15,065 bases of DNA from a virus (taxonomy: Duplodnaviria; Heunggongvirae; Uroviricota; Caudoviricetes), in IMG/VR virus record IMGVR_UViG_2534682325_000026; one strand, 5' to 3'. The first letter of the stretch is position 1. The number at the start of each line of letters is the position of its first letter. Position numbers: made by a program. Below are positions 9,001 to 12,000 of the stretch, piece by piece.

Positions 9001-12000
9001 TTCCTGAACCGCCCCGGAAATCCTGGAGACTAAACTCCCTGAGAAAGAGGTAAACAGGATGACTAAAAATACTCGTTTTTCCCCCGAAGTCCGTCAGCGG
9101 GCGATTCGTATGGTTCTGGAAAGTCAGGATGAATATGACTCACAGTGGGCGGCAATTTGTTCCATTGCCCCAAAGATTGGCTGTACGCCGGAGACTCTGC
9201 GTGTCTGGGTTCGCCAGCATGAGCGGGATACCGGGGGCGGTGATGGTGGGCTCACCAGCGCTGAACGTCAGCGTCTGAAAGAGCTGGAACGTGAAAATCG
9301 TGAACTGCGCCGCAGTAACGATATCCTTCGCCAGGCTTCCGCTTATTTTGCGAAGGCGGAGTTCGACCGCCTCTGGAAAAAATGATGCCACTGCTGGATA
9401 AGCTGCGTGAGCAGTACGGGGTCGGACCGGTATGCAGCGAACTGCATATTGCCCCGTCAACGTATTACCATTGTCAGCAACAGCGACATCATCCGGATAA
9501 ACGCAGTGCCCGTGCGCAGCACGACGACTGGCTGAAGAGAGAGATACAGCGCGTATACGATGAAAATCATCAGGTGTACGGTGTGCGTAAAGTCTGGCGT
9601 CAGTTGTTACGGGAAGGAATCAGGGTGGCCAGATGTACAGTGGCACGTCTCATGGCGGTTATGGGACTTGCCGGTGTTCTCCGGGGTAAAAAGGTCCGTA
9701 CGACCATCAGCCGGAAAGCCGTTGCCGCAGGCGACCGCGTAAACCGTCAGTTCGTGGCAGAACGACCTGACCAGCTGTGGGTGGCTGATTTTACTTACGT
9801 CAGCACATGGCAGGGCTTCGTCTATGTGGCGTTTATCATTGATGTGTTTGCCGGATACATCGTGGGGTGGCGGGTCTCATCGTCTATGGAAACGACATTC
9901 GTGCTGGATGCGCTGGAGCAGGCGTTGTGGGCCCGTCGTCCGTCTGGCACCATCCATCACAGCGATAAAGGCTCTCAGTATGTGTCACTGGCCTATACGG
10001 AGCGACTAAAAGAAGCCGGATTACTGGCATCAACAGGGAGTACAGGCGACTCGTATGACAACGCGATGGCTGAGAGCATCAATGGTCTTTACAAAGCGGA
10101 GGTAATACACCGTAAGAGCTGGAAAAACCGTGCAGAAGTGGAACTGGCCACACTAACGTGGGTGGACTGGTATAACAATCGACGATTGCTGGGAAGGCTG
10201 GGCCATACTCCTCCGGCAGAAGCAGAAAAAGCTTATTATGCTTCCATCGGAAACGATGATCTGGCAGCCTGAGTTCACAGATAAAACACTCTCCAGGAAA
10301 CCCGGGGCGGTTCATCCCTTTCAAATATCTGTCGCTTTGCCGGTCATCTTTCGCACTTCTACAGCGTCGCCCAACATGCGGTTCTTTGCAGCCAGCTGGT
10401 ACCGCAGGAATTTGCTTTTGAAGCATTAATGCATGATGCAACAGAAGCGTATTGCCAGGACATCCCCGCTCCACTGAAACGCCTTCTTCCTGACTATAAA
10501 CGGATGGAAGAAAAAATTGACGCCGTAATCCGTGAGAAATACGGGTTACCCCCAGTTATGAGTACGCCCGTGAAATATGCCGATCTTATCATGCTGGCAA
10601 CCGAACGCCGCGATCTCGGGCTTGATGATGGCTCTTTCTGGCCTGTACTGGAAGGCATCCCGGCAACAGAGATGTTCAACGTGATTCCACTGGCACCTAG
10701 CCATGCCTACGGGATGTTTATGGAACGTTTTAACGAGTTATCGGAGTTACACAAATGCGCATGAATGTTTTCGAAATGGAAGGGTTTCTTCGCGGGAAAT
10801 GTGTACCGCGAGATCTGAAAGTGAATGAAACAAATGCTGAGTATCTGGTGCGTAAATTCGATGAAGTACGTGCTGAGGCTCGCAACGAGGGTATTAACTA
10901 TACCGCAAGCCGTCTTGCTGCTGCTTTCAATCACGGATTTATCAATAAGCCTTTGGCTGAAGTTTTCGACGTTACACGCATGATTCTGTCAGCAAAAGAA
11001 GAGTTAGCTAATGAATCGCATCCGATTGATGGCCTGTCCGGTGAATATGCAGAGAAATCCCTTGAAGAATGGGCGGAACGGCTTCGCAAAGGAGGCAGCC
11101 AGTGACTGGACATGCAGCAATCCTCGACATGTGCTGTGGCAGTCGCATGTTCTGGTTCGATAAGAATGACGACCGGGCGATATTTAGCGATATCAGAAAG
11201 GAAGAGCACACATTGTGTGATGGACGACGCCTGATTATCAGTCCTGATCTGATAGCTGATTTTCGTGCACTACCATTTGCAGACGCATCTTTTTCGATGG
11301 TTATATTCGACCCTCCGCATCTTGAGCGTGTTGGTGATAACGCCTGGATGGGAAAGAAATATGGACGGCTGAATAAAGATACCTAGCGTGATGATTTGCG
11401 GCAGGGATTTAAAGAAGCCTTTCGTGTGTTGCGTCCATCCGGCGTTCTGATTTTTAAATGGAATGAAACGCAAATACCTGTTCGCCAGATATTGGTACTG
11501 ACCGACAGAAAACCTGTTATCGGTCAACGAACAGGAAAAAACGATAAAACCCACTGGATTATTTTTATGAAATAGGCATCCAGTGAGTAGGTTCGTAAGG
11601 TTACAGATACGTATATCTGAATAATTAAATTCAGTTCTGTAAATAAAATTTAATCCTTAACCGGAGGGATTCCTGCACCCTCAGAACATCAGGAGACCGC
11701 CCGAAAGGGCGGTAATGAAAAATGGCTGAATTAACCAAATGGCTACAAAACACGATTACCGGAATTGAAACGGTAGTAGACGATAAATCGTTTGTATGTG
11801 ATGAAATAGTATTCAAAATCGATGTGGTTAAAAACGTACTTACCGCATTTAAAGTCGCGCTGGTATCGCTGGAAGTATTGATGATACTTTGTCGATCAGC
11901 GATGCTCTCTCAGAACTAAACCATTTCATTAACCGGCACGCAGACAATACGAAATATTTAAAAGTCTGGGGTAACGGGGCCACCTTCGACAACGTAATTT

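Follow-up and report, generated by a model that had tools for sequence, protein, structure and literature searches.

Interruption of a small prophage methyltransferase gene

The window considered here, namely the entire 15,065-nucleotide stretch of Caudoviricetes DNA that was analyzed, contains a 157-codon gene on the + strand (positions 11102–11575) assigned to a small class I SAM-dependent methyltransferase of the phrog_954 family that is interrupted by an internal amber codon and that is, with little room for doubt, an ordinary pseudogene arising from one nonsense mutation. That status is already known, with the gene being listed in RefSeq/PGAP as a pseudogene carrying an 'internal stop'. 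The present result confirms this call, removes the idea of amber suppression-dependent expression in Escherichia coli O157:H7, and otherwise matters little.

The interrupting TAG occupies positions 11384–11386 of the + strand and corresponds to codon 95 of 157, such that the methyltransferase frame in the window is not continuous. Pairwise alignment with the corresponding gene of an O111:H8 prophage, whose product (WP_000145671.1; also encoded in other prophages) is annotated as a 'class I SAM-dependent methyltransferase', revealed a single difference in 474 nucleotides, with the Trp95-encoding TGG of the O111:H8 allele being replaced by TAG via a G-to-A change at position 11385. The two copies also share their context, with the same upstream gene encoding a 116-residue protein, the same GTGA-coupled start, and yfdR. 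Unlike the O111:H8 allele, the window copy hence encodes only 94 residues. Past the stop, a further 62 sense codons can be read before a TAG at 11573–11575 closes the frame. An initial reading of the sequence, referred to here as the first-pass annotation, had correctly noted the in-frame TAG and the 62 open codons beyond it, and had placed the stop 8 codons after the DPPH motif; in fact, 21 codons lie between His73 of that motif and the stop.

The comparison with orthologs that had been proposed earlier was carried out and revealed that TAG replaces a sense codon. Apart from the TGG of the O111:H8 allele, tryptophan is retained at this position in 119 of 120 close homologs and in 144 of 146 more distant ones (cluster representatives, ~42–85% identity). 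Proteins ending naturally near codon 94 were sought among the same 146 representatives; none was found, and none ends before position 118. The exact TAG-containing 61-mer was detected in 202 records, with the matches listed coming from O157:H7 or from E. coli that, judging solely by their genome size of ~5.4–5.8 Mb, would be O157-like, while the exact TGG-containing 61-mer was present in 164 records from diverse E. coli strains, including O111 and O145. As such, of the two possibilities that had been raised, i.e., a pseudogene or a product dependent on amber suppression, it is the former that is borne out by the TGG/Trp found in orthologs, the absence of supE (see below) and the RefSeq 'internal stop' label.

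Protein family and predicted fold

Using the intact O111:H8 translation, identical to that of the window apart from W95, residues 3–157 were matched to positions 50–201 of the 229-position phrog_954 profile (E = 2e-86). 'DNA methyltransferase' is the annotation label of phrog_954, and the function is thus a predicted one. Pfam Methyltransf_11 was also matched, with 24.2 bits relative to a cutoff of 21.2. The DMCCGS (residues 9–14) and DPPH (residues 70–73) motifs reported in the first-pass annotation were both found. The former belongs to class I motif I (LDMCCGS, residues 8–14), in which D9, C12 and G13 are at least 90% conserved. The latter corresponds to motif IV of amino-group methyltransferases, shows no variation among 91 sequences and comes immediately after a strand comprising residues 64–69. 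D30, found at the end of the strand spanning residues 26–30 and likewise invariant in the 91 sequences, corresponds to the acidic residue that binds the SAM ribose.

An AF2 model of the intact ortholog (P0001; pLDDT 95.2) was compared with the PDB using Foldseek, yielding 106 methyltransferase-type matches at E ≤ 0.001, in line with the seven-stranded sheet of a class I methyltransferase fold. The best structural matches were Bud23, nucleomethylin, Trm11, PH0226 and M.TaqI, with TM scores of 0.5–0.6. Sequence searches of the PDB, relying on either the single protein or the 91-sequence profile, returned only generic class I methyltransferases with weak E-values, and no characterized member of this DPPH methyltransferase family was found in the PDB or the literature. 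When a conserved upstream partner gene was sought in Klebsiella, Listeria and Streptococcus phages, the neighbors were seen to differ, with none being evident. Minimal DPPH methyltransferases of this type are encoded by temperate phages and are unusually conserved, being 45–60% identical across phages of Proteobacteria, Firmicutes, Actinobacteria and Bacteroidetes.

Prophage setting and gene overlaps

In some lineages of E. coli O157:H7, dusA harbors an integrated, degraded prophage of which a ~12-kb remnant is left, and it is this remnant that the window represents; strain ECP19-598 served as the O157:H7 reference for the locus. O157:H7 chromosomes match the window at 100% identity. SS17-type O157:H7 strains carry the remnant, whereas Sakai and EDL933 do not; inspection of the dusA site in Sakai revealed no prophage there. 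Of the phage and phage-flank features that PGAP annotates in the remnant, ten are partial or disrupted.

Three genes on the same strand overlap start-to-stop at positions 10755–10764 and 11102–11105, as had been described. The first, a yfdR-like gene, ends with a TGA at 10762–10764, and the next ORF begins with an ATG at 10755, creating a 10-nucleotide overlap, with a GGAG at 10743–10746 ahead of this ATG; an in-frame ATG at 10761 also yields a classic ATGA overlap. This second ORF (10755–11105, + strand) is an intact gene encoding a 116-residue hypothetical protein (WP_001242740.1) and ends with a TGA at 11103–11105, thereby overlapping the methyltransferase GTG start at 11102 by 4 nucleotides (GTGA). 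An AGGAGG Shine-Dalgarno sequence (11090–11095, + strand; read from the sequence) is found 6 nucleotides upstream of the GTG. Residues 1–35 of the 116-residue protein are identical to residues 1–35 of both K-12 YfdS and a 180-residue protein of the Stx2c phage EH0430, while residues 37–116 match residues 101–180 of the EH0430 protein; no Pfam family was matched by the 116-residue protein. Since the same overlap layout recurs in yfdR/yfdS of K-12 CPS-53, in the O111:H8 prophage and in phage EH0430, it is conserved rather than a product of chance.

The proposal that these genes form a single, translationally coupled operon is reasonable in light of this conserved layout, yet does not hold at the 5' end, where the operon is broken by IS629 in yfdR. 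Codons 1–30 of the yfdR-like 5'-deoxynucleotidase (HD) gene are found at 8915–9004 (+ strand; a partial hypothetical protein according to PGAP) and translate as MSFIKTFSGKHFYYDRINKDDIDINDIAVS, equivalent to residues 1–30 of K-12 YfdR. Codon 30 is interrupted by a 1,310-bp IS629/IS1203 element of the IS3 family (9005–10314, + strand), the ends of which, like the flanking 3-bp TCC target duplication (9002–9004 and 10315–10317), were read from the sequence; within the element, PGAP places an IS1203-family transposase with a programmed frameshift (9059–10272). The 3' part of the gene (10315–10764, + strand; partial according to PGAP), a pseudogene encoding an HD-domain 5'-deoxynucleotidase without its N-terminus, picks up K-12 YfdR from residue 30 and matches phrog_318 (1e-91), with its match to Pfam YfbR-like being weak. 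What had been taken as the HD-domain gene thus comprises only this 3' part, with IS629 separating it from codons 1–30. A scan of positions 8300–12700 for sigma-70-like promoters found none, although the simple consensus employed renders this result uninformative.

Downstream of the methyltransferase gene, blastn comparison of the window with the O111:H8 prophage (L002) revealed the junction of a 1,463-bp deletion at position 11875, as a result of which a hypothetical gene starting at 11722 now runs into what remains of a 3'-5' exonuclease gene, namely its 3' part (11868–12227; a partial exonuclease according to PGAP). The G11385A change, the site of IS629 in yfdR and the 1.46-kb deletion can be used as lineage markers for this remnant in dusA.

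Inactivation in the course of prophage decay

In the O157:H7 copy of this lambdoid-type prophage early-region gene, a G-to-A transition at 11385 turned the near-invariant Trp95 codon into TAG. A ribosome initiating at the coupled GTG would then release a product of 94 residues. In the AF2 model, the long helix comprising residues 95–109, which opens with residue 95 itself, and the three core strands comprising residues 110–121, 138–144 and 150–156 are all downstream of the stop. The 94-residue product would retain motifs I–IV and, as ~40% of the Rossmann fold is missing, should be inactive; on the basis of the model, the truncated protein is presumably non-functional. The gene itself is probably now expressed weakly or not at all, although some transcription, such as read-through from IS629, might still occur. 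The lesion is one part of ordinary prophage decay, standing beside the IS629-split yfdR and the downstream 1.46-kb deletion. Given that beyond the TAG the gene is undamaged, with a strong AGGAGG-GTG start, the mutation is recent.

The TAG is the sole substitution across the 2.87 kb common to the window and the O111:H8 prophage, which could hint at selection for loss over neutral decay; in either case, the gene is inactivated. When this lone substitution is considered together with the W95 amber codon and an opal codon at W82 in a Klebsiella phage copy (see below), one can conceive of selection against the active enzyme in lysogens or of a split enzyme that still assembles, although such a scenario is improbable.

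That the protein works in split or truncated form, either as the 94-residue fragment alone or together with a C-terminal fragment initiated at a TTG at 11396, is very unlikely. A 59-codon ORF does begin at this TTG, 9 nucleotides past the stop, and in the Klebsiella phage copy, an independent TGA at Trp82 is directly followed by an ATG, with the gene being annotated as two CDSs; PHROGs, moreover, assigns each half to a family of its own (phrog_11564, N-terminal; phrog_6151, C-terminal). However, no Shine-Dalgarno sequence precedes the TTG, re-initiation there would leave out the conserved Trp95 and Asp98, and, in the AF2 model, the stop cuts a single compact Rossmann domain in mid-sheet. The O157:H7 and Klebsiella stops, furthermore, lie at different positions, a pattern expected where TGG codons were lost independently in each lineage rather than where a split is conserved, and none of the 146 full-length-family representatives is naturally split.

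Still less credible is that full-length, functional protein is made by amber suppression or by efficient natural read-through of UAG. In all E. coli, low-level near-cognate read-through of UAG takes place, and the 62 downstream codons are open and identical to those of the intact allele. Such open codons are, however, expected after any recent nonsense mutation, and with orthologs presenting TGG/Trp instead, the TAG is a mutation derived in this lineage rather than a recoding signal maintained among orthologs. Nor was a supE-type suppressor tRNA, the presence of which had been suggested as worth checking, found in the host. In Sakai, the glnV/glnX anticodon is ctg, and the carriers ECP19-598, 17B6-2, 644-PT8, FRIK944 and SS52 match the 1,241-bp Sakai tRNA cluster at 100% identity, such that glnV/glnX are wild type in these genomes, which therefore lack supE. 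The supE CUA tRNA was instead found in C600, DH5alpha, DH1, J53, S17-1 and similar laboratory K-12-type strains, as well as in other small genomes of ~4.5–4.8 Mb, with no O157 genome appearing among the matches listed (60 of 155 records). This check was confined to suppressors of the supE type (glnV/glnX). A search for tRNA genes within the window found none. Finally, supE would introduce glutamine where 144 of the 146 relatives contain tryptophan. The suggestion that the full-length product depends on amber suppression is thus not supported.

As for a sequencing or assembly error masking an intact gene, a change of one base could in principle arise in this way, yet nothing specific points to an error, and with the identical TAG 61-mer appearing in 202 independently assembled complete records and the TGG form occurring in other lineages, this can be safely set aside.

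Comparison with known systems

The window resembles the yfdQ-yfdR-yfdS-yfdT region of K-12 CPS-53 (KpLE1) in the order of a DUF2303 gene (yfdQ), yfdR and a small overlapping gene, with identity extending to the 10-nucleotide yfdR/yfdS overlap and to residues 1–35 of the protein encoded next. CPS-53, however, contains no methyltransferase homolog at the relevant position, where yfdT instead follows yfdS. YfdT, as the positional counterpart, was considered and rejected, being unrelated to the window methyltransferase. The first-pass annotation had named yfdM as the CPS-53 counterpart, a pairing that proved mistaken: the best BLASTP E-value was 8.7, and yfdM lies on the opposite strand and in another module. 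YfdM, moreover, is the product of a truncated Dam-family gene (PF05869; 2.5e-23), whereas the window protein does not match PF05869.

A functional analogy for a small prophage amino-methyltransferase lacking a target-recognition domain is offered by M.EcoPA8orf6770P, an MT-A70 rRNA methyltransferase of the O157:H7 Stx phage phiPA8 that contains a DPPW motif, is co-transcribed with a small upstream partner that confers substrate choice, and in the inactivation of which IS629 is involved (PMC10810198). The window gene was nonetheless rejected as being that encoding M.EcoPA8orf6770P, given that MT-A70/DPPW represents another family; the window protein instead presents DPPH, with motif I preceding motif IV in a class I fold, and yielded no match to the MT-A70 Pfam family at E ≤ 0.1.

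The Trm11/M.TaqI-type (D/N)PP(Y/F/H) amino-methyltransferases share with the window protein a class I Rossmann fold, a motif I G-loop ahead of DPPx, and the placement of DPPx where strand 4 ends (Foldseek probability 1.0; TM 0.5–0.6, i.e., moderate), at only 15–20% identity. By contrast, the protein, at 157 residues in full length, lacks both THUMP and target-recognition domains, and the model does not show several of the canonical helices. The intact allele, such as that of the O111:H8 prophage, would offer a convenient starting point for characterizing this widespread family of small phage methyltransferases.

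Internal stop codon in the methyltransferase gene

The methyltransferase gene (11102-11575; VTGHAAILDMCCGS...FDPPHLERVGDNAWMGKKYGRLNKDT, stop, RDDL...FMK, stop) contains an in-frame TAG at 11384-11386, corresponding to codon 95 and followed by 62 more sense codons. His73 of the DPPH motif and the stop are separated by 21 codons and not by 8, as given in the first-pass annotation. The O111:H8 prophage (NZ_CP077447.1) contains the same gene, annotated as intact (WP_000145671.1), with the two 474-nt versions differing at one position, namely, TAG versus TGG. In related sequences, the TAG position is a sense codon. 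Trp occurs there in 119 of 120 close homologues (the best 120 matches, all at least 76% identical, from a search of 5.8 billion proteins). Distant homologues were sampled as 148 cluster representatives (clustering at 50% identity), which share about 42-85% identity with the query; 146 of them cover this column, and 144 of these have Trp. In a curated 91-sequence alignment, the Trp95 column is likewise nearly invariant. Orthologues ending naturally at the stop were sought among the homologues and not found, with none of the 148 cluster representatives ending before query position 118.

When complete E. coli genomes were searched with exact 61-mers around codon 95, the TAG version was found in 202 records, those among the matches listed being O157:H7 or other E. 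coli of ~5.4-5.8 Mb, presumed to be O157-like on genome size alone. The TGG version was found in 164 records from diverse strains, including O111:H8 and O145:NM. As the same base appears in 202 independent assemblies, sequencing error is excluded as the source of the TAG. The TAG is a derived point mutation. The window methyltransferase gene is a pseudogene of an ordinary kind, created by a recent nonsense mutation that is fixed in those O157:H7 lineages carrying the prophage remnant. Its pseudogene status is already known, since RefSeq annotates the internal stop.

The effect of the stop on the protein was considered using a confident AlphaFold2 model (mean pLDDT 95.2; pTM 0.89) of the intact close homologue P0001 (96% identical), built with the 91-sequence alignment. 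In the model, strand 7-9 precedes the DMCCGS loop (motif I), the invariant Asp30 closes strand 26-30, and strand 64-69 precedes the invariant DPPH (motif IV), beyond which lie helix 95-109 and strands 110-121, 138-144 and 150-156. Because the stop coincides with the first residue of helix 95-109, a 94-residue product would be missing the helix as well as three central-sheet strands, the highly conserved FRVLRPxGVLIFKWNE segment among the losses. We infer that such a product could not fold into an active enzyme.

There is a small possibility that loss of the methyltransferase was under selection. The TAG is the sole substitution across the 2.87 kb common to the window and the O111:H8 prophage, and a homologous methyltransferase gene in a Klebsiella prophage (phage ST16-OXA48phi5.1, MK416013.1; locus L010, 2489-2971) has an in-frame TGA at the conserved Trp82 (TGG-to-TGA, in GCC TGA ATG) and is annotated as two adjacent CDS, a second, independent Trp-to-stop knock-out in the family. 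Coincidence is, however, the simpler account, because a single base change can turn a Trp codon into either of two stop codons.

The first-pass annotation had offered a pseudogene and amber suppression as alternatives; the former stands, given the TGG-to-TAG change and the RefSeq internal stop, while production of a full-length methyltransferase through suppression is not supported. No tRNA genes were found in the window. The annotated anticodon of both glnX and glnV in O157:H7 Sakai is ctg, and carriers ECP19-598 (the exact-match genome for the window segment), 17B6-2, 644-PT8, FRIK944, SS52 and JEONG-1266 match its 1241-bp glnX-glnV-metU-glnW-glnU-leuW-metT cluster at 100% identity, such that carrier strains have wild-type tRNA-Gln(CUG) and no supE-type tRNA. 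The supE (CUA) tRNA, proposed earlier as a check, had exact matches in 155 records; the 60 of 155 listed were all genomes of ~4.5-4.8 Mb, mostly K-12-type laboratory strains (such as C600, DH5alpha, DH1, J53 and S17-1), with no O157 genome among them. Moreover, supE would introduce Gln where the residue is almost always Trp. The tRNA evidence, which covers supE-type suppressors, is strong but not exhaustive against amber suppression.

The parallel earlier drawn with yfdM holds insofar as yfdM is a truncated methyltransferase gene, YfdM being what is left, 91 residues, of an enzyme of the PF05869 Dam family. As a counterpart, yfdM was rejected on the basis of its family, its lack of similarity to the window protein and its location beside yfdN/yfdO on the opposite strand in K-12 CPS-53. 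There, the module order is yfdQ-yfdR-yfdS-yfdT, with yfdT, which comes after yfdS, being unrelated to the window methyltransferase.

The intact methyltransferase family

Profile searches match the protein to phrog_954 ('DNA methyltransferase'; 2e-86), and it barely passes the cutoff of Pfam Methyltransf_11; nothing in NCBIfam scored above its cut-offs, and PDB sequence searches gave weak generic matches only. Foldseek of the model returned class I methyltransferases at moderate TM (0.5-0.6), including Bud23, nucleomethylin, Trm11 (m2G10) and M.TaqI (N6-adenine), with none of the solved structures being a close relative (TM of about 0.6 at best). Members of the phrog_954 family, about 157 aa long, present invariant D30, P48, DPPH70-73 and R108 and have no target-recognition domain. 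The order of motifs, with motif I before the invariant DPPH tetrapeptide, points to nucleic-acid methylation at an exocyclic amino group as the predicted activity. Full-length proteins of 45-65% identity occur in phages of Streptococcus, Listeria, Staphylococcus, Enterococcus, Porphyromonas, Corynebacterium, Gordonia, Vibrio and Acinetobacter, such that the family spans phages of several bacterial phyla. Since neighboring genes vary among the phages compared, no conserved partner subunit is evident. No characterised member was found for this minimal methyltransferase family, which is conserved yet unstudied. The rRNA methyltransferase encoded by Stx prophages is an MT-A70 enzyme with DPPW (PMC10810198) and, unlike the window DPPH protein, belongs to another family, offering an analogy only.

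The prophage remnant and its decay

Segment 10273-11700 shares 100% identity with E. coli O157:H7 chromosomes, such as that of strain ECP19-598 (NZ_CP066753.1), from whose RefSeq annotation gene content was read. The window starts with pspG, dusA, a dusA-type integrase, a DinI-like gene and three DUF1076 (NleG-like) genes, followed by genes for tail fibre and Lom and by several incomplete structural genes. Further along are a partial yfdQ-like gene (DUF2303), an IS1203/IS629 transposase, a partial yfdR, a 116-aa hypothetical gene and a 'SAM-dependent methyltransferase' pseudogene with an internal stop, and finally a partial 3'-5' exonuclease, PrtN, a short dusA fragment and yjbM. As such, the window holds a degraded prophage of ~12 kb integrated in dusA, flanked by full-length dusA (542-1579), with the integrase alongside, and, on the attR side, by the short dusA fragment (13643-13747). 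The remnant corresponds to the ~12-kb 'region 21' of super-shedder strain SS17, located between yjbK and dusA and reportedly missing in Sakai and EDL933 (PMC4321836). Indeed, at the Sakai dusA locus, yjbM directly adjoins dusA and no region 21 is found. The three DUF1076 (NleG-like type III effector) genes, in tandem at 3236-5233 on the minus strand, are intact, cargo surviving amid heavy prophage degradation.

The HD-domain gene (yfdR) is itself a pseudogene, since it is split by a simple insertion of the 1310-bp IS629/IS1203 (9005-10314) in codon 30. The 30 codons at 8915-9004 correspond to YfdR residues 1-30, the frame picks up at 10315 from residue 30, and a 3-bp TCC target duplication (9002-9004 and 10315-10317) flanks the element. 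The downstream genes are thus cut off from their original upstream sequence. In a blastn comparison of 9005-11875 with the O111:H8 locus, the sole differences were a 20-bp IS offset and the TGG-to-TAG substitution. In O111:H8 strain SF26 102-1, the same IS lies 20 bp further upstream in yfdR with an unrelated left flank, reflecting either an independent event or a rearrangement mediated by the IS at almost the same site. Beyond 11875, 1463 bp are missing relative to the O111:H8 prophage (4624-6086 of its locus, L002), a deletion that joins the hypothetical gene starting at 11722 with the remaining 3' part of the 3'-5' exonuclease gene and took out small hypothetical and DUF551 genes. In total, PGAP reports ten partial or disrupted features in the remnant, the attR dusA fragment included.

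Operon organization

The overlapping gene layout described earlier was borne out by the sequence and translations. The yfdR frame stops at TGA 10762-10764, past the ATG of the middle ORF at 10755 (GGAG upstream at 10743-10746), with a second in-frame ATG at 10761 creating an ATGA overlap. The middle ORF stops at TGA 11103-11105, in a GTGA overlap with the methyltransferase GTG start at 11102 (AGGAGG at 11090-11095). Given that this architecture is kept in yfdR/yfdS of K-12 CPS-53, in the O111:H8 prophage and in Stx2c phage EH0430, the ancestral arrangement can fairly be read as a co-translated operon. The 116-aa middle protein (10755-11105), assigned to no Pfam family, matches residues 1-35 and 101-180 of a 180-aa EH0430 protein, with 93-100% identity in both parts, and is therefore an in-frame shortened or mosaic variant; the first 35 residues are also common to K-12 YfdS. 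Within the 146-nt spacer 3' of the methyltransferase gene, shortly before the ATG at 11722, lies a GC-rich hairpin, ccgcccgaaagggcgg (11687-11716), possibly a stem with a terminator-like or regulatory role.
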